From a virus (lineage: Duplodnaviria > Caudoviricetes): DNA of 30,525 bases. The notes beneath the pieces were generated by a model that searched no databases, was not told the origin of the DNA, and saw nothing but the letters and a program-made list of their open reading frames with translations. Positions 6,121 through 28,456 of the stretch are shown here, piece after piece. Where the stretch lies: positions 1 to 30,525 of IMG/VR virus record IMGVR_UViG_3300033475_000115; one strand, 5' to 3'. Position numbers and translations under genes: made by a program. Every line of letters begins with the position of its first letter. The stretch's first letter is position 1.

Positions 6121-6756
6121 TCAGATGATCGCGAAGCGGATGTGGTCCTTGAGCATCTGCTGCACGAGGGGGATGAGATCGACGGTGCCGAGATCGTTGG
6201 TGAGGCGTTTTTCCTCGGGCTTGGCGCCCAAAGAGAGGCCGAGCTTGTCGCGCCGCGACCACACGTATTCGCATTGGATGATCCACGCGGAGCGGATCGC
6301 CTCGGGCAGCGCGGCGGAGCCATCGGGCTGCGTGGTGGGATAGCCGTCATCGGTCGGCTCCAAGGTTTCCCAGAAGTAGCCGCCCGTGTAGGTGACACGC
6401 GCCTGACCGTGTTTATCGGTGAGATAGTTGGAGAGATCGAGCAGGCCGGCATCGGCGCTCCAGTTGTAGAGGGCGCCGAGGCCATCGACCCAATCGGTAG
6501 CGAGGCGCACCTTGTAATCGAGGGCGGTGACCGCTTCGACGGGATAGCGCGGGAGACTGATGAGGCGGCTATTGCCCGGCACGGTGAGCGTATCGGCCTC
6601 AACGCGGGCAAACTTGCGGTTGCAGAAACCCTCGACCAACCCGGCCACGCCCAAGCCCACGGCGGCGACGAGGGCGTCGTAGGTGATATCGCTGCGCAGC
6701 GATTCGTTGAGCAGCTGGATCTTGAGGGCGGTGAGGTTGGAGAAGCCGGCGTTCAT
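6121..6756 (-). CDS. Head-tail connector (gp6-like) protein
   Basis: VEGFCNRKF, LPRYPV, VTYTGGY, LPEAIRSA motifs; position downstream of the capsid gene. Confidence 0.75.
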   Translation of the reverse strand: MNAGFSNLTALKIQLLNESLRSDITYDALVAAVGLGVAGLVEGFCNRKFARVEADTLTVPGNSRLISLPRYPVEAVTALDYKVRLATDWVDGLGALYNWSADAGLLDLSNYLTDKHGQARVTYTGGYFWETLEPTDDGYPTTQPDGSAALPEAIRSAWIIQCEYVWSRRDKLGLSLGAKPEEKRLTNDLGTVDLIPLVQQMLKDHIRFAII

Positions 6757-6837
6757 GGGATCAGCGGGTCTTGATGGGAAACGGGCGCGGGGCGGGCTTG
6801 GGCATCGGGCGGGTGACGGTGGGCGGAGGCATGGCGT

Positions 6838-7533
6838 TCAGATCACGGCCACGGTGAAGAAGCAGTCTTCGCTGCCGGCGGTCTTGGTCGCGTAGGTGGA
6901 GGAGTTGCACACGGTGACGCCGTTTTCACAGGCGAGGCCGGTGGCGGGGAGCGGGATCTGGAAGTTGCTCGATCCCGGCACGGTGATGACCGCGAGGGGA
7001 ATGGCGGCGGCGATCTCGGTGACGCCCTGAGTATCCACGGCGACGGCGAGGCCGGAATCGCCAGCGGCGATATCGGTGCGGGCGCCGGTGGCGGCATCGG
7101 TGATCGTGACGACGTTGACGAGCGCGGTGGCGCCGAAGTCGGCGATGGCATCGATGGCGGCGGCGATGGCGGTCGCGATGGTGGAGACGCTGTCGCCGGT
7201 GGTGAGGGCGACCTCGATGCCGGTCTTGCCGTCGAGGGCGGGATCGGTGCCGCCGGCGTCGAGATTAAACCACACGTAGAAATCGCCGGAGGCGCCGGAG
7301 AGCAGGAAGTATTTGTCGCCCAGGCCGGCGGCGGTGAGGCCGGTGGTGTCCACGGTGGAAATCTCAGCGACGCCGGCGACGGCATCGGGCGGGACGTCGG
7401 CGGCATCGTGGAGCTGGATGAATTGGGCAGTGGCCTTGGCGTTGTAGCCGGCAATGTGGGTGACGACGCCACGACGCAGAGAGGCGACGAGGGCGGCGGC
7501 GGCGGCGAGGGAGGATTTTTGCGAGGCGATCAT
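6838..7533 (-). CDS. Putative capsid decoration/structural protein with internal inserted domain
   Basis: Directly after the capsid gene. N-terminal FIQLHDA and C-terminal G..CENGVTV beta-sandwich-like halves flank an Ala/Thr-rich insert (FYVWFN...IATAIAAAID). Confidence 0.5.
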   Translation of the reverse strand: MIASQKSSLAAAAALVASLRRGVVTHIAGYNAKATAQFIQLHDAADVPPDAVAGVAEISTVDTTGLTAAGLGDKYFLLSGASGDFYVWFNLDAGGTDPALDGKTGIEVALTTGDSVSTIATAIAAAIDAIADFGATALVNVVTITDAATGARTDIAAGDSGLAVAVDTQGVTEIAAAIPLAVITVPGSSNFQIPLPATGLACENGVTVCNSSTYATKTAGSEDCFFTVAVI

Positions 7534-7545
7534 GGTGGTCTTAGT

Positions 7546-7573
7546 TGAGAACTGAGAGTTGAGAGCTGAGAGA
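7546..7573. repeat. Heptamer tandem repeat (TGAGAGC)x4, intergenic
   Basis: tgagaac tgagagt tgagagc tgagaga. Confidence 0.8.
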
Positions 7574-7591
7574 CGGGCTTAAGGAGTTTCT

Positions 7592-7620
7592 AAAAAGTCC
7601 CCGCGCCCATGCGGGGGACT
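7592..7620 (-). terminator. Intrinsic terminator after the capsid gene
   Basis: Minus strand agtcccccgc-atgggc-gcggggact followed by a T run, just downstream of the capsid stop. Confidence 0.7.
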
Positions 7621-7643
7621 CGAAGAAACGCCTGGGCGTTTGG

Positions 7644-9020
7644 TTAGCTGGCGGAGCAGCGCAGACCGGCGACGGCCTTGGAGGCCATGAGGCCGACGGT
7701 GAAGCGCTCCAGGCCACGGATCAGAATCTCGTCGGTCGCGAAGCCGGCTTCGCGAGAGGTGTCCATGCGGACGGTGCCGCGCGGCGTGAGATACTGATAC
7801 GAGGCATCGCCGAAGAGCGCGTGAACCACGCTGACCGTGGCGCTGGTGGTGTAGGCCGGCATGATGTCGGTCCACACGATTTCGAAACCATCGAGCGTGG
7901 CGGGCGAAGTGCCGTTGGCGCGCTGATACGGGACGACCGTGGCCGACGTGTTGAACGTGACCAGGAGCGCCTCGTAGGTGGAGTGCATGTAATACTTCGA
8001 GCTGTTCAGCACGACACCGCTGAGGGTGGACTCGTTGCGCATGGCGCGGAAGTCGGCGAGGGTCGCCTGGCTGGGCTTGGTCTTGCCGGAGTTGGACGCG
8101 CCGCCTTGGTAAACATAGCAGGAGTCCGTGACCACAGCCTTGGCCAGACCCTCGCCCGTTCCGTTGACGCCTGAACCGGCGCCGGTGGAGAGGAAGAACT
8201 GGTAGTCTTCGCACTTGGCGATCTTGCGGGCGGCGTAGCGGGCGATGAACTGGCCCATGGCGACGATGCTGTCTTCGTCGATTTCGGAGGGCAGGCGGAT
8301 GAGGCCGCCGAATTTCTCGGCGGCGAACGTGACCCACGCGAAGCCAGGGCTGACTTCGGTGACGGTGCCGCTCATGCCGATGAGGCCCCAGTCGGTATCG
8401 GTGCCGAGTTTGGGCAGCTTGATGGTGCCGGCTCCCATCGGAAACACGGTGCCAACCTTGCGAGCCTGGCCATATTGGAAGACGAGTTCGACGACCTCGG
8501 CACCGTAATTGACGGGCAGCGGGATGTCGCTGGTCGTGAGCGCCGACTTCAGCTCCATGCCAAGGATGCCCTTGACCTGGCGCTCGATCATATCGAGCTG
8601 GTGCTGCTTGAGGTCGGCACCGGGCGTCTTGGCAGCAGCGATGAGGCCGATGGCGCCGAGGAACTTGGCGCAGTCGTCGGAGACCTCGCCACCACGACGG
8701 GCGCGCTGGTTACGGACCTCCAGCATCTGCTTGCGGAAGGTGTCGTTGGCCTGCTTCACCTCGTTGAGGATCTTGGTGAAGTCGTCCATGGCCTTCTGCT
8801 GGGCCTCCTGGGTTTTCTTCAGGTCGCCGACTTCGGCCATGCGCTGGTTGAGCAGCGTGAGGGATTTGGCGAGCTGTTGGTCGAGGGTGTCCTTGGGAGC
8901 ATCATCGGTGAGGGATAGCGAGAGCGGAGCCAGCGCGAGGCCGCCCGCGTTGGCGATGTTATGAGCGACGAGCAGCGTTGCGGCCGCGAGCCACTGGAAG
9001 AACAGAAGGAACTTTTTCAT
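7644..9020 (-). CDS. HK97-fold major capsid protein (458 aa from ATG 9020)
   Basis: Coiled-coil delta-like domain, then IPLPVNYGAEVVELV, VTFAAEKFGGLIRLPSEIDEDS, LFGD, GFATDEILIRGLERF. Start chosen at MKKFLL, downstream of the protease stop. Confidence 0.92.
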   Translation of the reverse strand: MKKFLLFFQWLAAATLLVAHNIANAGGLALAPLSLSLTDDAPKDTLDQQLAKSLTLLNQRMAEVGDLKKTQEAQQKAMDDFTKILNEVKQANDTFRKQMLEVRNQRARRGGEVSDDCAKFLGAIGLIAAAKTPGADLKQHQLDMIERQVKGILGMELKSALTTSDIPLPVNYGAEVVELVFQYGQARKVGTVFPMGAGTIKLPKLGTDTDWGLIGMSGTVTEVSPGFAWVTFAAEKFGGLIRLPSEIDEDSIVAMGQFIARYAARKIAKCEDYQFFLSTGAGSGVNGTGEGLAKAVVTDSCYVYQGGASNSGKTKPSQATLADFRAMRNESTLSGVVLNSSKYYMHSTYEALLVTFNTSATVVPYQRANGTSPATLDGFEIVWTDIMPAYTTSATVSVVHALFGDASYQYLTPRGTVRMDTSREAGFATDEILIRGLERFTVGLMASKAVAGLRCSAS

Positions 9021-9051
9021 GGTGGGAACTTGATGAACTGACGTTTTGGTT

Positions 9052-9783
9052 TCAGAGATGGGCTGACACTCCGGCGATGAACGCTGCCTTCGCCCGCAGG
9101 GAAGCGGCGGCACCGTCTGCGGGACTGGTGGGTGCGGTCGCGGTTTTCGTGGCGGCATACAGGACGGAAAGTTTTTCGAGTTCGCCCTCGGCCAGGCAGC
9201 CGGCCTTGTAGGCCTTGGCGAGCGCGCTGGGGTTGGCCCCGATGATGCACTGGCTGAGCTCGATCTGCTCTTGAGCGAGATACACGGCGCGGAGCTGGGC
9301 GGCTTGCTGCGGGTCGAGTTTCAACTCGGCGATCTGCGCGAGGAAGGGGGCGCTGTTGCCATCCCACTTGCTGCACATCGACACGGGCACGAAGCCCACC
9401 GAGACCGCCTTGAGGAAGCCGTCGCGCACGAGCTTGAAGGCCATCGCACCCAGGCTCCCCTCGTCGCGGATGTATTTCACCGTTTCGACGAGTTCCGGCT
9501 TGTTGTCTGCGCTCATGCCGGTGCGCCAGTCGGTGACCTTTCCAAGCAGCTGCGTGATGCAGCTGTAGTCGTGGCTGTTTACGAAGGGGCTGTTCTTGGT
9601 AAAGTTGGTGAATCGCCAGCCGTTGACGCGCACGATCTCGCCATAGCAGTCGAGCGTCTCGTCGGAGGCGGTGAACTCGATGGTGCCATCGGCTTCGCTG
9701 AGGACGCGGGGGACGACGGCGAACTCGCGGCGGACGGTGCCGGCGGGACGGCCGAGCTGCTTGAGAATGTCAGGGATGTTCAT
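9052..9783 (-). CDS. HK97-family prohead protease
   Basis: ASDETLDCYGEIV, FVNSHDY, GFLKAVSVGF, ELSQCIIGANPSAL. Confidence 0.9.
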   Translation of the reverse strand: MNIPDILKQLGRPAGTVRREFAVVPRVLSEADGTIEFTASDETLDCYGEIVRVNGWRFTNFTKNSPFVNSHDYSCITQLLGKVTDWRTGMSADNKPELVETVKYIRDEGSLGAMAFKLVRDGFLKAVSVGFVPVSMCSKWDGNSAPFLAQIAELKLDPQQAAQLRAVYLAQEQIELSQCIIGANPSALAKAYKAGCLAEGELEKLSVLYAATKTATAPTSPADGAAASLRAKAAFIAGVSAHL

Positions 9784-9797
9784 GGTGGGAAAAGGAA

Positions 9798-12068
9798 TCA
9801 GCCTTCGGCGGTTTCGACGGGGATGGAGACGCAGTGGCAGTTGATGACGTTCTCGGGCGCGCCGGCGGGATCGCCGGGGAACTGGAGCTGCTCGCCGCCG
9901 ACTTCGAAGAACTCGTCGATGCGCACGATCTGCTCGTTGGCGGCGGCGTGGGCGGCGCGCACATTGGCGTTGCCGCTCGTGAGCCATTGCTTGTAGCCGA
10001 TGCCGGCCTGCTGCATGGCCTCGTCGCGGCCCGCACCGTAGGCGGCGGCGGTCTCGGTGGTGGCGATGACACGGGCCTTGCCCTGGTCGATGCCGTTGAA
10101 CTCGGCGCGCACACGGGTGGCGAGTTCCTCGGTGGTGTCGCCCTTGGTGATGCCCTCCTCCAGCGCCTCCTTGATGCGGTCAAAGGTTTCCTGCGGCACA
10201 CCCTTGAGCTTGTTCTCGCGGGCGCGGGCGTATTCCAGGACGGCCTCGGGCGGGAACTTGAAGGGGTCGTCGCGGCCGATCTCCTTGAAGAGCTGCGAGC
10301 CGGCGGTATCGAGAGCGGTTTCTCCGGCCTTGCGCATGGCGGCGAGCAGGCCGTCCGAAAACTTGGTGAGGTCGAAGAGGAAGTTGGCGGCGGCGGCGCG
10401 CTGCGCGAGCTGAGAGTTGAGAGCTGAGAGCTGAGAGCCGGACTTTTCGGCAGGGCGATAGTTCTTCTGAATCTTCGCGAGAACCTCGCCGCGCGCCTTC
10501 ATCAGCTCGCGGCCGATCTTCGACTGGTAGAGCTTCACGGTGCCGCGCCGCTTGGTCATGTGGTCGCGCCACTGGGCGAGCTGCTTGGGGTCGCGGGCTT
10601 TCTGCGCGACGACGGAGGCGTCGCCATGGCAGCCGCAGGTGAACATGGAGAAAGAGTCGGGAGCTGAGAGCTGAGAGCTGAGAGACCGGCACTCCGGCTT
10701 CGAATTGGCGGCGCGTTGGCGGGCGAGGAGCACGAGGCGCAGTTGCTCGACCTCGGGATCGGCGGGGGCGGCATCGGCGGGCTCGGCAAGCGCGGGATCG
10801 GCGGCGGGATCGGAGGAGCCGCCTTGGCTGGCGTTCGGATCAACGGGGCTCACCGAGAACGGGAGATAGCCGATCTGCCAGCCGGGGAACGCATCCATGC
10901 CGAGGCCGAGGTAGTCGTTGACGTTCTTCATCGGCATGCCGACACCGGTCAACTTGATCGCAGTATCCACGCGCGCCTGGCGGGCTTCGACCATGACGGG
11001 ATGATCATCCCAATCGGCAACAGCGGTGAGCGGGCGGCCGGCGAGCAGTGAAGCAGGGCGATCGAGCGCGCTATCGATGGCGCCAGCCTCGGCGATGCAC
11101 GTGCCGGTGATGAGCTGGTAGCGATCGCTGCTCGCGCCGGTGGAGTAACTGGCCTTGATATCGGCCATGCTCGCAGGCACGCCCAGGCCGATGTAGATCT
11201 CGTGACGTGAGGCGAGACGGGCGGCGGTGAGATCGGCACCGGGAGCCTGCGCCTTGGCATCCTGAATCTCGAATTTCGCCGGACCCCCGAGGAAGCCGAT
11301 GGAGAACTCGCCGCGGCGCGCCTTGCGCTGTTTCTCGCGGAGGCTGGCGATGATCTGCTGCTTCTGCGCCTCATCGAGATTGCCATCGGCGAGGACAAAG
11401 ACGCCCTGGTCGCCGTTGTTGCGCATGAGATTCTTGACGTAGACGCCGGCGAGGTAGTCACCGGCGGCAGCGTTGAAGATGGCATCGACCGGCGCGGAAC
11501 CACGGAACTCATCGCAGCCGGTGTTCATGATCGGCACATGGATCACATCCTCGGGGAGAAACGTCTCCTGCCGGCCGCCGGCATCGGTATGCGCCCAGCC
11601 GATGATCTGACCGCCCGATACGATGTGGCGCATGCAATCCGGCCGGGCGAGGAGCAGCGGCGGGAGACTGGCAGGATTGCGCGGGCGCAACGAAATATCC
11701 GTCCAACCCTCACGCAGGAGGATGAAGAACTCGCCCTTGAGGTCGAACCAGTTGGCCGCCCACACGCGATACTGGTCGAGCGTGAGACGACGGCCGGTGG
11801 AGAGGGCGAAGGGCTGGCCGGACCAGAAAGCCTTGAAGCGAGCCTCGTCGTATTCCTTGTCGCCATCGTAGAACTCGACCTCGGTGGCGGCGATCTCGCC
11901 GGCCTTCTTGTCGATCGCGGAGCGCACCCAGCCGGATTGCTCGCGGGGCAGGATAAACTCGGCGGTGCGGCCATAGCCGAGCCCGTCATCGGCATCGCGG
12001 CCGGCGATAAAATCGGCGGCGAAGGAGCGGGCGACCCATGAACGGACGGCGCGGGGGAGCAGTTTCAT
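9798..12068 (-). CDS. Portal protein (HK97-type) fused to a C-terminal Mu gpF / SPP1 gp7-like head morphogenesis domain
   Basis: Portal motifs (GEFFIL, PEDVIHV, RGSAP, EIYIGLGVP). C-terminal RARVIATTE-like helix, KQWLTSG..VRAAH, FPGDP, NVINCHC. Confidence 0.88.
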   Translation of the reverse strand: MKLLPRAVRSWVARSFAADFIAGRDADDGLGYGRTAEFILPREQSGWVRSAIDKKAGEIAATEVEFYDGDKEYDEARFKAFWSGQPFALSTGRRLTLDQYRVWAANWFDLKGEFFILLREGWTDISLRPRNPASLPPLLLARPDCMRHIVSGGQIIGWAHTDAGGRQETFLPEDVIHVPIMNTGCDEFRGSAPVDAIFNAAAGDYLAGVYVKNLMRNNGDQGVFVLADGNLDEAQKQQIIASLREKQRKARRGEFSIGFLGGPAKFEIQDAKAQAPGADLTAARLASRHEIYIGLGVPASMADIKASYSTGASSDRYQLITGTCIAEAGAIDSALDRPASLLAGRPLTAVADWDDHPVMVEARQARVDTAIKLTGVGMPMKNVNDYLGLGMDAFPGWQIGYLPFSVSPVDPNASQGGSSDPAADPALAEPADAAPADPEVEQLRLVLLARQRAANSKPECRSLSSQLSAPDSFSMFTCGCHGDASVVAQKARDPKQLAQWRDHMTKRRGTVKLYQSKIGRELMKARGEVLAKIQKNYRPAEKSGSQLSALNSQLAQRAAAANFLFDLTKFSDGLLAAMRKAGETALDTAGSQLFKEIGRDDPFKFPPEAVLEYARARENKLKGVPQETFDRIKEALEEGITKGDTTEELATRVRAEFNGIDQGKARVIATTETAAAYGAGRDEAMQQAGIGYKQWLTSGNANVRAAHAAANEQIVRIDEFFEVGGEQLQFPGDPAGAPENVINCHCVSIPVETAEG
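10411..10438. repeat. Heptamer tandem repeat within the portal-gpF gene
   Basis: tgagagt tgagagc tgagagc tgagagc; encodes GSQLSALNSQL. Confidence 0.85.
10661..10685. repeat. Heptamer tandem repeat within the portal-gpF linker
   Basis: gagc tgagagc tgagagc tgagaga; encodes SLSSQLSAP. Confidence 0.85.
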
Positions 12069-24761: not shown

Positions 24762-25091
24762 ATGCCCGCGAAACCAAAAAACAACACCATGCAGCTGCGC
24801 TCGCAGCTCTCCCGCGTTCTGGAGGCCATCTCCAGAATCGAATACCCCAGCGATATCGAGCGCGATTTCCGTCTCGGGGTGCTTAAGCGTATTCCGCTGG
24901 CCGCCGATCTGCCCGTCGTCTCCGACGAGGATCAGCAGACGCGCGCCTATGACATCCGCGACCTCACCTCGGCCTGCGCCATCGCCCACCCGACGCCCGA
25001 GGAGCGTGCCGCGCGCGCCATGATCATCGGCAAGCTCTCGGCGAGTTTCAAGTTGGCCGAACTCCGCAAAACCACCCTCGCAGCCCGATGA
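24762..25091 (+). CDS. Hypothetical early protein
   Basis: cccacgaccATG leader; ATGA overlap downstream. Confidence 0.6.
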   Translation: MPAKPKNNTMQLRSQLSRVLEAISRIEYPSDIERDFRLGVLKRIPLAADLPVVSDEDQQTRAYDIRDLTSACAIAHPTPEERAARAMIIGKLSASFKLAELRKTTLAAR

Positions 25092-25362: not shown

Positions 25363-25653
25363 ATGAGCGCCGCCCGCCAAAAACACCTCGGCCCGCTGGA
25401 TTTCAGCGGAGGCCCCAACGCCCCGAAGCCCGGCTCCGGCATGAAGGCGCTGGAGGCGGCGGCGATCTCCAAGCCGGCCGGATCGTTTTACTATCCGCTG
25501 TTTGAACACATGAGCCGTGAACATGGCCTGATTTTAACCGACTCCGAACTCGCCGAAATCGTGCGCGTGTCGGAAGCGTTAAGCCGGAACGACGCAGGTG
25601 GGCCATGCGGCCCGCAGGCCGCGCCCGTTGGCACCCCTCGCGAACACCCCTGA
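25363..25653 (+). CDS. Hypothetical protein whose 3' end runs into the distal attC
   Basis: In-frame AAC at 25588; stop lies inside the attC loop. Confidence 0.6.
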   Translation: MSAARQKHLGPLDFSGGPNAPKPGSGMKALEAAAISKPAGSFYYPLFEHMSREHGLILTDSELAEIVRVSEALSRNDAGGPCGPQAAPVGTPREHP

Positions 25654-25688
25654 GCAGCATACGCATTGGCACTAGCGCATGGTTCTCC
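25584..25688 (-). repeat. attC site of cassette 5 (distal), 105 bp
   Basis: Minus strand: ggagAAC-catgc-gct(a)gtgc-ca(a)tgcg ... cgcatg-gcccacc-tgcgtc-GTTccgg. Confidence 0.7.
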
Positions 25689-25699
25689 TCCGTAAATTT

Positions 25700-25894
25700 A
25701 TGTCCTCGAAAACTATCAAACTCACCGAAGTCCGAAGAGAGAAAATCGACTTCCGCAAGATCGCCGAAGAATCCGGCGCACGTCTCGGGAACCTGTGCCA
25801 CTCGCCCGCTTTCGGCTGGGGCGTCCGCACGCAGGACGGATACCCGGCTGACTTCTGCTCGATCACGCCTCCGCCGTTCCAACAAATAAGATGA
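25700..25894 (+). CDS. Cassette 5 ORF, hypothetical (alternative start 25679)
   Basis: MSSKTIKLTEVRREKIDF...; stop overlaps the methylase ATG. Confidence 0.55.
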   Translation: MSSKTIKLTEVRREKIDFRKIAEESGARLGNLCHSPAFGWGVRTQDGYPADFCSITPPPFQQIR

Positions 25895-26000
25895 CCAACG
25901 ACCCTGAGATGACGGCCACGTCGGAGCCCGTCGCGCTCGAATGCCCTGCACCGATCGCGGCAGGACAGACAGGGTCGTTGGGTCTGGCGCCTGGTTCAGC
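25877..26000 (-). repeat. attC site of cassette 4, 124 bp
   Basis: Minus strand: gctgAAC-caggc-gcc(a)gacc-(c)aacgaccctg ... cagggtcgtt-ggtcatc-ttattt-GTTggaa; 10-bp perfect inner stem. Confidence 0.85.
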
Positions 26001-26469
26001 GTCCGTTCACTTTTCGAGCGCCTCTGACGACTGGCCAACCCCTCAAGACTTCTTCGACAAGTGCAATGCGGAGTTCGGGCCGTTCGACCTCGACGTGGCC
26101 GCCGCGCCGGACAACGCCAAGTGCGCGAAATACTTCACGTCGTGGGATGACGGCCTCGCCCGTGAATGGTGCGGGCGCGTGTGGATGAACCCGCCGTATG
26201 GTCGCACAATCGGCGACTGGATGCGGAAAGCCTACGAATCCGCGCAAGCCGGCGCGCTCGTGGTGTGCCTCGTGCCAGCGCGGACAGACACGGCGTGGTG
26301 GCACGACTACGCGATCAAAGGACATATCCGATTCATTCGCGGGCGGCTAAAATTTGGGGGGCACGAAAACTCAGCGCCGTTCCCCTCGGCCCTCGTGGTC
26401 TTCTCTCCGCTGAACGCGGAGATCAGACACGCGAACCCGAATACCAATTCCGCCCCGAGCGGACAATGA
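25891..26469 (+). CDS. Cassette 4 ORF: phage DNA N6-adenine methyltransferase (phage Dam-like family)
   Basis: DDWPTPQDFF, FDLDVAA, DGLAREW, VWMNPPYG, LVPARTDTAWW, IRGRLKF, SAPFPS. Confidence 0.92.
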   Translation: MTNDPEMTATSEPVALECPAPIAAGQTGSLGLAPGSASVHFSSASDDWPTPQDFFDKCNAEFGPFDLDVAAAPDNAKCAKYFTSWDDGLAREWCGRVWMNPPYGRTIGDWMRKAYESAQAGALVVCLVPARTDTAWWHDYAIKGHIRFIRGRLKFGGHENSAPFPSALVVFSPLNAEIRHANPNTNSAPSGQ

Positions 26470-26521
26470 CCATGAAAAAACCTGAACCTGTGAGCGTTGT
26501 TTCTGTGGCGACTGGTTCTCT
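26409..26521 (-). repeat. attC site of cassette 3, 113 bp (weaker inner stem)
   Basis: Minus strand: agagAAC-cagtc-gcc(a)caga-aacaacgc ... gcgtg-tctgatc-tccgc-GTTcagc. Confidence 0.75.
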
Positions 26522-26753
26522 GGCTCGTGAGCCGCTGACCGAAAAACAAGCCGACAACCTGCTGGCTCTGCTCGGAAACGCCAAGAGGCTGGAAAAGCTC
26601 AGCGCGGCGGAACTCGTGAGCGAATGTCTCGAGACTCCCGCCGCTGACTACCAAGTCGTGACAGAGCTCATGAACCGCGTCCTGCCGGGGTGGGCTGACA
26701 TACTCGGGGATGACGAGCCAGAGAACGCTTCGGATCAGAGACCCCGCCCATGA
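26466..26753 (+). CDS. Cassette 3 ORF, hypothetical (95 aa)
   Basis: ATGA overlaps at both ends; start lies in its own attC loop. Confidence 0.7.
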   Translation: MTMKKPEPVSVVSVATGSLAREPLTEKQADNLLALLGNAKRLEKLSAAELVSECLETPAADYQVVTELMNRVLPGWADILGDDEPENASDQRPRP

Positions 26754-26811
26754 AGACTCTCAATTGTAAGCAAGACGCGAAGGCGGGGTTCTCTGCATCC
26801 GATTGTTCGCC
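26720..26811 (-). repeat. attC site of cassette 2, 92 bp (clearest example)
   Basis: Minus strand: ggcgAAC-aatcg-gat(g)caga-ga(a)ccccgcc ... ggcggggtc-tctgatc-cgaagc-GTTctct; perfect stem apart from two unpaired bases. Confidence 0.92.
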
Positions 26812-27097
26812 CACGTTCGTCTGGACGCTCATCGCTGGCTACGAGCCGATGGAGGAATGCCATACCGATGGCGGCATGAAAGTCGGCTGGGTCAACCCGG
26901 ATGCGCTCACCAAGATGACGCCTCGGAACAAATGGGGAACGCGCGCGGACTGGCCCGGCGAGTGGGAGGGCGTGCCGCATGTCAACGACGCAGAAGGCCA
27001 GCCGCTCGATTGGGAATTGTCGCGCGTCTGTGAAAGCTACGAAGCCGCGAAGTCGCACGTTCAGCGCAGTTGGGCGAACAACTCGGGTCAGAAATGA
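26750..27097 (+). CDS. Cassette 2 ORF, hypothetical (115 aa, Trp-rich)
   Basis: Start in its own attC loop; stop in the next attC. Confidence 0.7.
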   Translation: MKTLNCKQDAKAGFSASDCSPTFVWTLIAGYEPMEECHTDGGMKVGWVNPDALTKMTPRNKWGTRADWPGEWEGVPHVNDAEGQPLDWELSRVCESYEAAKSHVQRSWANNSGQK

Positions 27098-27164
27098 CCC
27101 TCTACTAATCAACCGAATCACCAGCGGGCACAGCAGGGTCATTTTCTGTAGTCGCTGGTTAGCC
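27073..27164 (-). repeat. attC site of cassette 1, 92 bp
   Basis: Minus strand: ggctAAC-cagcg-act(a)caga-a(a)atgaccct ... agggtcatt-tctgacc-cgagtt-GTTcgcc. Confidence 0.9.
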
Positions 27165-27181
27165 TCCGTAAAACGAATACT

Positions 27182-27493
27182 ATGGACCTAGAAACACGAT
27201 ACATCGTAGTGAAAATCAAGGACGCGAACCGCTTCCTTTCGACTGCCGAGCGAGACATGCTAGAGCGGCTCCATGCCAAGGCCGCTCTGGGTAGAATAGA
27301 CGCAGGCCAAAAGATGCTAGACTGCATCGTGGTAGAGAAAGACTGGCCGGAATACGCGCCGACACTCGCCGCTATCTCAGCCCGCGTGGACGCCCTCGGG
27401 AATAAGCCACACCATGCATGTGACGAATCGTGCATCTATCACTGCACGGAAGCCGGACAGCATCCGCCTGATTGTTTGGCTAACAAGCAGTAG
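27182..27493 (+). CDS. Cassette 1 ORF, phage-type hypothetical (103 aa)
   Basis: RYIVVKIKD...CIVVEKDWPEY pattern; ends ANKQ* across the attI crossover. Confidence 0.75.
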   Translation: MDLETRYIVVKIKDANRFLSTAERDMLERLHAKAALGRIDAGQKMLDCIVVEKDWPEYAPTLAAISARVDALGNKPHHACDESCIYHCTEAGQHPPDCLANKQ

Positions 27494-27517
27494 GCCCACG
27501 GAGGTTCTCTATCACTT
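27478..27517 (-). other. Putative attI site
   Basis: Minus-strand GTTagcc core (27484-27478) with a 6-bp spacer and L-like box, no attC hairpin; 33 bp upstream of the intI ATG. Confidence 0.7.
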
Positions 27518-28456
27518 ATGCCCTGGCTCGCTGACAAAATCTCGGATGCTTGTGCGGTGAAGAACTTTTCACCGCGCACGGTGGAATGCTACACGTCGTG
27601 GGCTCGGGTATTTTTTCGGTTCTGCAAGCAGCGTGACCCCCGCTCCTGGACGGCTGATGACGTTAAGGGATTCCTCACTTGGATGGCTACGACGAGTCCT
27701 TCCTATTCGGCCAAATCCCAAAAGCAGGCTAAGAACGCCATCGTCTTCGTCACCCGTCACGCGCTGGGAGTGGACATTGGCGATTTCTCTTCGTTCCAGC
27801 GGGCGCCGGAGTTCCGCCGACCTCCCACGGTGTTATCTCGCACTGAGGTGCTCGCACTCCTCGAAAAAATCCCTAACAAATGGCGGCTTCCGATTGAGCT
27901 GCTTTATCGGTGCGGCCTTCGGCTGAATGAAATGTGCCGGCTGCGGGTGCAGGACTTGGATATCTCTTGCAGGCGGGTGATCGTCATTGATGGAAAGGGC
28001 AAAAAACACCGTGAGGTGCCGTTGCCAGAATGCCTGGTCGAAATGGCTGAGCGCCGTATCCGTTGGCGCAAGGGCCTGCACGAGGCCGATCTTGCCCAGG
28101 ACGCGGGGATCGCTCCGATGCCTGATCGCCTCGGGGTCAAGCTGCCCAGCGCCTGTCGTGAGATCGGCTGGCAGTTCGTTTTCCCCTCCACCTGCATCCG
28201 TGATGGGGCGCGGTGGTGGACGAGCGATACCCAGATTCAGGAGATGGTGAAGAAAGCAGCCAAGGAGGCCGGCATCCTCAAGCGCGTCACGCCCCACACT
28301 CTGCGCCACTGCTACGCCACCCACCTGCTGGAGGCTGGCGCCAATATCCGCGACGTCCAGGAGCTGCTCGGTCACGCCGACGTCTCGACGACGATGATCT
28401 ATACCCATGTGCGCGCCCAATCGACGCGGGGATTTGTTAATTTACTGGCCTCATGA
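27518..28456 (+). CDS. intI: Integron integrase (tyrosine recombinase)
   Basis: SPRTVECY..W N-terminal domain, PTVLSRTEV, GLRLNE, DGKGKK, IntI-specific insert LHEADL..DAG...MPDRLGVKLPSACREIGWQFVFPS, HTLRHCYATHLLE, LLGH, TTMIYTHV. Confidence 0.92.
   Translation: MPWLADKISDACAVKNFSPRTVECYTSWARVFFRFCKQRDPRSWTADDVKGFLTWMATTSPSYSAKSQKQAKNAIVFVTRHALGVDIGDFSSFQRAPEFRRPPTVLSRTEVLALLEKIPNKWRLPIELLYRCGLRLNEMCRLRVQDLDISCRRVIVIDGKGKKHREVPLPECLVEMAERRIRWRKGLHEADLAQDAGIAPMPDRLGVKLPSACREIGWQFVFPSTCIRDGARWWTSDTQIQEMVKKAAKEAGILKRVTPHTLRHCYATHLLEAGANIRDVQELLGHADVSTTMIYTHVRAQSTRGFVNLLAS

Follow-up and report, generated by a model that had tools for sequence, protein, structure and literature searches.

Inverted gene cassettes that appear to take their stop codons from the neighbouring attC site in the integron of a probably Mu-like prophage

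The DNA analysed here (IMG/VR record IMGVR_UViG_3300033475_000115, Caudoviricetes, 30,525 nucleotides (nt); in the following the window) comprises most of a probably Mu-like prophage, whose early operon harbours an integron: five small genes, separated by attC recombination sites, precede the integron integrase gene intI on the same strand, and one of them encodes a methyltransferase of the Dam family. Our comparison with related arrays makes it fairly probable that these genes lie on the bottom strand of their attC sites, that the mobile unit consists of an attC and, behind it, a gene body ending at AA/C (the slash marks the crossover), and that a shared asparagine (Asn) reading frame allows any attC downstream, or the attI site in front of intI, to provide a nearby stop codon. 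The sequence comparison supports the proposed geometry, the borders of the unit, the frame rule, natural swaps of C-terminal tails and translational coupling in long attCs.

Results and discussion

Reading frame at the junctions

Inspection of the letters of the window (hereafter the sequence-only reading) had led to the claim that no cassette open reading frame (ORF) stops within its own cassette. In the window this holds, as all six upstream ORFs extend beyond the core AAC of the site they meet (the first of them, at 25363, is probably a resident gene), but it fails for the family as a whole, in which only 39 of 86 genes cross the junction. Five of the six window ORFs read the AAC in frame as Asn, as had been stated, and the remaining one reads the core at 25881 one base out of frame. 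Stop codons in the AAC frame were confirmed at all six sites (Table 1); the one ending at 25889 is unused by the present upstream ORF, which ends at 25894. The overlaps of stop and start (ATGA) noticed within attCs at 25891, 26466 and 26750 are likewise present, and a fourth, at 27094, opens an ORF of four codons only. Taken by itself, the window is statistically weak: five of six junctions in frame give p=0.018 against an expectation of 1/3 and p=0.15 against a codon-usage expectation of 0.54, and five stops out of five inside an attC give p=0.06 at the rate of the antisense control. The statistical strength comes from the relatives and not from the window alone.

Searches with the integrase IntI yielded 134 viral, 80 metagenome, 80 genome and 19 usable family loci with 292 non-redundant sites. 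The loci classed as inverted contain 139 sites, of which the 86 with a confidently called upstream frame were used and 53 were dropped; frames were called with our own hexamer model, trained on the host genome, and the five sites of the window were entered by hand. This model replaced a first classification by ORF length, which confused genes that stop just before the core. Among the 39 genes that cross, 38 do so in the Asn frame; counted by protein family the figure is 34 of 35, and 34 of 34 with the window excluded. The frame of the AAC is not random across arrays, a bias that the sequence-only reading had proposed to look for, and codon usage, by which AAC falls in frame at 50-54% of positions in phage genes, does not account for it (p about 1e-8).

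The genes that do not cross follow a pattern of their own. Among 47 genes with their own stop, 17 end at the TAA of TAAC and 16 at positions -8 to -6, and 22 of the 25 genes in frame 2 end on a TGA that overlaps an Asn-frame ATG, GTG or TTG, with the frame open to the core. The base before this TGA is a C in 1/23 cases, compared to 166/544 elsewhere (p=0.003). To judge from these sequences there are three exits at a junction: read-through in the Asn frame, the TAA of TAAC, or a slightly earlier TGA overlapping an Asn-frame start, which would launch a mini-ORF. All three occur in two other prophages of the same genome, whose seven junctions comprise three in-frame read-throughs, three start overlaps and one TAA stop.

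Polarity of the sites and borders of the mobile unit

In known attCs the crossover lies in the R' box of the bottom strand, and the end of a cassette is expected to pair with its own flank behind the GTT (PMC2727003, in the part accessible to us). Sites were scanned for this bottom-strand geometry with a detector of our own rather than IntegronFinder, using the spacer lengths of a known attC, which were checked on ordinary arrays. The + strand outscores the - strand as attC bottom strand at all five window sites, four of which pass the scan, and attC4 has two extrahelical bases on the 3' arm of its + strand. Since the + strand thus corresponds to the bottom strand, the crossover AA/C is placed at the left of each site, each attC goes with the gene to its right, and compared with textbook cassettes the genes are turned round. 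The polarity is general among viral relatives: of the sites that lie upstream of the integrase in the first 80 viral relatives, 109 agree with the window and one is opposite, and a refined detector, partly circular as it was trained on these same sites, finds 234 viral sites versus one on the reverse strand. Genes lie on the bottom strand at 53/59 confident viral sites versus 3/22 sites in bacterial genome loci.

Four independent lines back the borders of the unit at AA/C. Firstly, the flank behind the GTT pairs better with the end of its own cassette than with that of the neighbour in 71 versus 11 of 97 pairs (15 ties), much as in the control with ordinary arrays (31 versus 4 of 42); in the window own-end pairing holds for cassettes 2-5 and fails for cassette 1. 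Secondly, among 170 sites, all seven pairs with a common upstream gene diverge just after the AAC (three of the seven stem from one gene family), and four of five pairs with a common downstream gene have an identical attC. Thirdly, a second prophage of the same genome (contig C4) carries a copy of cassette 3, 90% identical, which extends from AAC 26413 to AAC 26724 and has other neighbours. Finally, two contigs from unrelated sequencing runs match the Dam cassette starting exactly at 25881; no RNA run was listed as containing the window, and the two DNA runs contain relatives only. Together with the scan, these comparisons uphold the earlier claim that the crossover lies at the AAC, so that the attC would travel with the downstream gene.

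The similarity between homologues was predicted to stop at the Asn, and for cassettes 3 and 4 and the Dam gene it does. Cassette 3 and its C4 copy are similar up to the Asn and continue with unrelated tails, and 4/7 homologues of cassette 4 have an Asn at the same place followed by different tails. Dam homology, approximately residues 37-180, begins after the GTT and reaches the Asn; the homologues begin with their own Met just before the core and end a few residues beyond it without a common tail. Cassette 1 is different: all 20 aligned homologues (of 37 matches) continue to a conserved Trp that cassette 1 lacks, the part shared by its two closest homologues (95% and 88%) ends about 22 residues further on, at an Asn, and 11 of the 20 show, by eye, an Asn and then a variable tail. 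As cassette 1 is truncated, its out-of-frame junction looks like the product of an off-target crossover or a deletion.

The homology of cassette 5 stops at an AAT Asn codon at 27401, 81 nt ahead of attI. Both the window (27401-27481) and a relative (L239:5881-5964) have, between the last cargo gene and attI, an in-frame stretch of 81 or 84 nt with the AAT Asn first and a 10-mer in common. A search for this motif covered 361 loci, 301 family genomes and viral contigs; among 126 loci examined, it stood beside an integron only in the window and in this one relative (L239 = L119 = L365). In nine further loci (L009, L019, L044, L053, L058, L063, L076, L317 and L327) a similar tail led by Asn closes the last gene ahead of intI, 90-150 nt upstream of the intI match, which suggests that a conserved attI also donates an in-frame stop there. 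Elsewhere (L049:3630-4064), a gene that ends at an attC matches the reverse-transcriptase PHROG phrog_1423 (residues 84-223 of 1040), possibly in an accessory domain only.

Termination and coupling

When the units of the window are permuted, an in-frame gene would meet a stop after 2-21 codons whichever site follows it, whereas the truncated cassette 1 would read 99-123 codons into 3/6 possible neighbours; on an empty platform the resident gene at 25363 would enter attI and stop three codons later. The proposal that any order of cassettes keeps termination would hold for in-frame genes, but not for cassette 1 in front of these three. Its companion, that any order keeps coupling to the next gene, has to be narrowed further: the stop abuts the next start only at attC2, 3 and 4, while the gap between them is 25-46 nt at attC1, 84 nt at attC5 and 24 nt at attI. 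In the family, an ATG lies within -8 to +15 of the Asn-frame stop at only 17/66 sites, compared to 6 and 13 in the other two frames. The excess is concentrated in attCs of at least 80 nt (14/29 versus 2 and 5), a length split that was chosen after seeing the data. Of 20 homologous attC pairs, 15 have retained the position of the stop (the other frames give 7 and 10), 3 of them by a change from one stop codon to another. In class 1 arrays an untranslated 3' stretch is described to lower downstream expression (PMC11511950, as far as its text was available).

Tail peptides

Shuffling had been supposed to swap short C-terminal tails. Natural swaps that give one gene different tails do occur: in L058/L059 two gene pairs carry either a tail of 2 residues or one of 30 to 34 residues, and judged by such comparisons tail swapping between related phages is real. 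It could be argued that shuffling thereby diversifies protein C-termini, for example with degrons or with localisation or binding tags, and the gene pairs just mentioned, as well as the range of donated tails from 2 to 39 residues, would suit this explanation. We nevertheless consider it highly improbable. In the tail frame of the 20 homologous attC pairs, 43 codon changes are non-synonymous and 8 synonymous, the changes are spread evenly over codon positions (26/30/27), 12 of 38 tails consist of just two residues, and the Dam homologues have no tail in common. The tails look like passive filler without conservation at the protein level, and it is apparently the end point of translation, rather than the peptide, that is under selection.

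Ordinary arrays and alternative explanations

Several observations weigh against our reading. More than half of the genes (47/86) stop within their own cassette and need no donated stop, and the frames rest on our own hexamer model: a PHROG search with 80 of the 86 proteins confirmed just 23 calls, i.e. 8 crossing genes (8/8 in the Asn frame) and 15 that stop earlier. The start that overlaps the TGA of frame-2 genes is ATG in only 5/25, the rest being GTG or TTG. Strict overlap of an ATG with the Asn-frame stop (9/66 sites) hardly exceeds the other frames (6 and 6), short attCs show no coupling (3/37), and in class 1 cassettes, according to the accessible part of PMC11511950, deletion of the attC altered downstream expression in a minority only. 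One pair (L009:2803 / L065:259) has the same downstream gene, 92% identical, behind different attCs; attC and gene can be re-paired in these loci. On the antisense strand of ordinary attCs an Asn-frame stop is found at 36/63 sites (109/139 in inverted arrays), a TGA at -8 at 12/63 and an Asn-frame ATG at 22/63. Finally, attC1 and attC3 fold no better than shuffled sequences.

Since antisense attC strands carry the same signals, part of the pattern is built into the DNA motif. One might go further and regard all of it as a by-product, in which the consensus of the attC flanks closes two frames, cassette formation tends to cut at an Asn codon, and no selection on translation is needed. Besides the antisense stops and starts, this explanation can draw on the codon usage of phage genes, in which AAC is in frame half of the time anyway, and on ordinary cassettes, which favour the Asn frame when they enter their own attC: genes reading into the attC amount to 4/29 in ordinary arrays and 4/19 in the integron on the host chromosome, and the Asn frame is used by 2/4 and 4/4 of them (6/8), as well as by 2/2 in phage TJE1. 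We still regard it as unlikely. Codon usage alone is rejected. On the antisense flanks of 87 sites, frame 1 is open in 43% and frame 2 in 77%, yet only 1/19 and 0/23 gene families cross in them. Read-through is also far more frequent in inverted (39/86) than in ordinary arrays (8/48; p=0.001), and the stop-to-stop changes, together with the excess of coupling in long attCs, point to translation.

The host integron (contigs C17, C23, C25 and C27) provides a further control. At 18/24 of its attCs an ATGA just upstream starts an Asn-frame mini-ORF (the two other frames have 1 each), which spans the hairpin and ends 4-21 nt before the end of the GTT, ahead of the crossover; in this integron each gene has an attC of its own and no swapping takes place. 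Inverted arrays are not alone in following the frame rule, because the host and ordinary arrays show the Asn-frame habit and antisense strands show Asn-frame stops. Interchangeability probably arose from an older convention and was not what gave rise to it, since the habit also exists on the other strand of the host's ordinary integron, where each attC is the gene's own. A bolder version, which we put forward tentatively, is that AAC-as-Asn is a translation standard kept by selection in chromosomal and phage arrays alike, which phages flipped into a plug-and-socket arrangement; genes would then go without stops, and long attCs would be portable stop-plus-start modules fitted to unrelated gene bodies. 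If this were true, the creation of cassettes would become testable.

It is also conceivable that the array was made in the proposed manner and no longer recombines. The truncation of cassette 1, the poor folds of attC1 and attC3 and the mere 90% identity of the second copy of cassette 3 would be expected of such a frozen relic, but IntI is full length, scores above the family cut-off and has its catalytic motifs, and attC2, 4 and 5 retain their stems, so that we rate this as decidedly improbable.

Our preferred reading, inverted units joined in a common Asn frame, would operate as follows. The predicted IntI would excise units of attC plus gene body and insert them at attI, and the early transcript of the phage would run through the array into intI. 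Ribosomes would cross the attC hairpins in the Asn frame, thereby limiting polarity, and long attCs would pass them on to a start in their loop. As both sides of a junction keep the Asn frame, a reshuffled gene would find a stop.

Features of the array

Table 1. Positions of the array and of the integrase gene in the window
Feature	Coordinates	Strand	Core AAC	First AAC-frame stop ends at	Remarks
Resident gene at the far end (probable)	25363..25653	+			reads the AAC of attC1 in frame; 21 codons (from Asn) and stop from attC1
attC1	25588..25684	+ (bottom strand)	25588	25653	predicted crossover AA/C 25589/25590; weak fold (z -0.67)
Cassette 1 ORF	25700..25894	+			alternative start 25679; truncated about 22 residues early; sole out-of-frame junction
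attC2	25881..25996	+	25881	25889	frame 0 stop 25887-25889 and frame 1 stop 25892-25894 both abut ATG 25891
Cassette 2 ORF, Dam-family N6-adenine methyltransferase	25891..26469	+			Pfam PF05869 at residues 43-173; phrog_111 at residues 37-180
attC3	26413..26517	+	26413	26469	atypical 5-nt left spacer; score 3.6, below detector threshold; exact border of the mobile unit
Cassette 3 ORF	26466..26753	+			recurs in prophage contig C4 between different neighbours and with a different tail
attC4	26724..26807	+	26724	26753	best-formed site (z -3.7)
Cassette 4 ORF	26750..27097	+			ATG 26750 is the only in-frame start ahead of the conserved region
attC5	27077..27160	+	27077	27097	also contains the 4-codon ORF 27094-27108; next start 84 nt off
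Cassette 5 ORF (phrog_7810-like)	27182..27493	+			stop supplied by attI
attI-like simple site	27478..27496	+	27482	27493	R box 27478-27484, 5-bp spacer, L-like box 27490-27496
Integron integrase IntI	27518..28456	+			TIGR02249, 295 bits (cut-off 265)

The ORF at 25363 has no attC in front of it that the geometry scan could detect, which is why it is probably a resident phage gene and not a cassette; it has no Pfam or PHROG match. The Dam ORF has an N-terminal leader encoded in attC2 and an 18-codon tail in attC3. The start that is conserved in cassette 3 is probably the one at 26472, which follows the stop by 2 nt, because the C4 copy retains the stop (TGA changed to TAA) and loses ATG 26466. 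The ATGA inside attC4 is very likely the real start of cassette 4, given that no other in-frame start precedes the conserved region. The end of attC4 is the GTT at 26805-26807, which corrects an earlier border; GTT 26788 was rejected. An AAC at 25897 was rejected as the core of attC2, as it forms the inner stem and the contigs mentioned above begin at 25881. A generic repeat search and Rfam gave no match for the attC sites. The attI-like site, located by sequence only, donates the in-frame stop 27491-27493 and shows own-end pairing at 4/4 adjacent bases; similar sites also precede the closest integrases (L239 and L002).

Prophage and related arrays

On the minus strand, profile matches identify head, portal, terminase and Mu gp27 genes, and on the plus strand an early operon that includes the transposition ATPase (phrog_296 transposition protein). 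The assignment to Mu-like phages is tentative and draws on phrog_296, the Mu gp27 and gpF domains and a weak transposase match (rve_3, E 0.008). The gene intI sits within the early operon on the strand of the cargo genes. Residues 14-308 of IntI align to IntI4 of PDB 2A3V over its full length, and the motifs R-K-HxxR-H-Y are at 135, 159, 260, 284 and 293; on this evidence it is an integron integrase with the IntI-specific insertion and the catalytic residues. The stop of intI overlaps the next phage gene by an ATGA at 28453; as another such overlap occurs at 25088 in the operon, translational coupling is the general style of the phage. The closest relative of IntI in genomes is L239, 73% identical, in a record labelled Verrucomicrobia. 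No sigma-70-like match to a Pc promoter was found near intI, and the 2 matches in 13 kb are at chance level, with a consensus that may not fit the promoters of the host. In a quick tree of IntI, one clade takes in 28 of the 39 inverted loci but not the window IntI; some orientation labels are surely wrong (the near-identical L033 and L063 differ), and we do not claim several origins.

In a close relative (L002:5950-6340) intI lacks its first 200 codons, an attI-like site stands directly before the remnant, and the array is intact. The C4 prophage (G000:C4:8500-9220) has a two-cassette inverted array behind a helicase gene, on a contig without an integrase match; the array terminates at a half site, where an ATGA overlap leads on to the following phage gene. 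A third prophage array (G000:C5:3500-5612) has a distant IntI (31% identity), and its attCs are 79-84% identical to attC1 and attC2 of the window, including the encoded N-terminal leader, with unrelated genes behind them, an observation that bears on cassette creation. The counterpart of attC1 is 84% identical and has its stop at the same codon, before a different gene. Phage Rctr41k (L488, KX853513) has no array upstream of its integrase and five attC-like sites downstream (6645-10097), with the bottom strand on minus and the genes on plus; its layout differs from that of the window.

Integron cassettes are usually viewed as a self-contained gene followed by its attC. In the arrays compared here roughly half the genes would be complete only after insertion, and the frame rule would make this safe; a temperate phage could in this way run a gene-capture device within a tightly coupled operon. 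Annotation pipelines are predicted to pair attCs with the wrong gene in inverted arrays. Near-identical attCs with start codon and leader before unrelated genes, in two prophages of one cell, also offer a way to approach the problem of cassette formation.

Comparison with known integrons

Canonical integrons (class 1, Vibrio and other chromosomal ones) share with the window an IntI of TIGR02249, an attI at the 5' end of intI, and attCs built of R and L boxes, in which the bottom strand has extrahelical bases and own-end pairing is seen (PMC2727003, accessible part); the position matrices of phage and chromosomal attCs nearly coincide. In contrast to them, all five cargo genes of the window are on the bottom strand and read toward intI, the attC comes before the gene and the crossover at its 3' end, and with no Pc detected in the window, expression presumably comes from the phage early operon.

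A partial precedent for borrowed stops is ORF-11, which runs over the attI1 crossover and is terminated by a stop in the first cassette, while short ORFs in attCs relieve the block that the hairpin imposes on translation and aid the next gene by re-initiation (both after the available text of PMC8876359). The likeness is that an ORF crosses the crossover and the incoming cassette gives the stop. However, ORF-11 is a leader peptide at one site, and the attC of the short ORFs is that of the upstream gene, whereas in the family of the window it is the cargo genes that cross, at about half of the junctions and in one fixed frame. The resident gene at 25363, running into attI on an empty platform, would be the mirror image of ORF-11.

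The chromosomal integron of the host (contigs C3, C17, C23, C25 and C27 of the same genome) has similar attC flanks and Asn-frame mini-ORFs, but differs in that its genes are on the top strand, 15/19 have their own stops, and the mini-ORF ends before the crossover. Phage-borne integrons and clusters of attC sites lacking integron integrases (CALINs) were described by Qi et al. 2023 (PMC9892861, consulted in part), with integron parts in phage genomes and DNA methyltransferase cargo; two of their phages, Shewanella M16-3 and TJE1, have ordinary polarity on re-examination, and the portion of the main text at hand makes no mention of inverted genes or donated stops. Nor was an account of inverted cassettes with donated stops found in the literature searched, which largely excludes subscription journals. 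Integrons of phages are thus already published, and inverted cassettes with borrowed stops are a real variant of the integron, to which the present comparison adds the three-exit rule, the limits of coupling, the passive tails, an explained exception and the control of the host integron.

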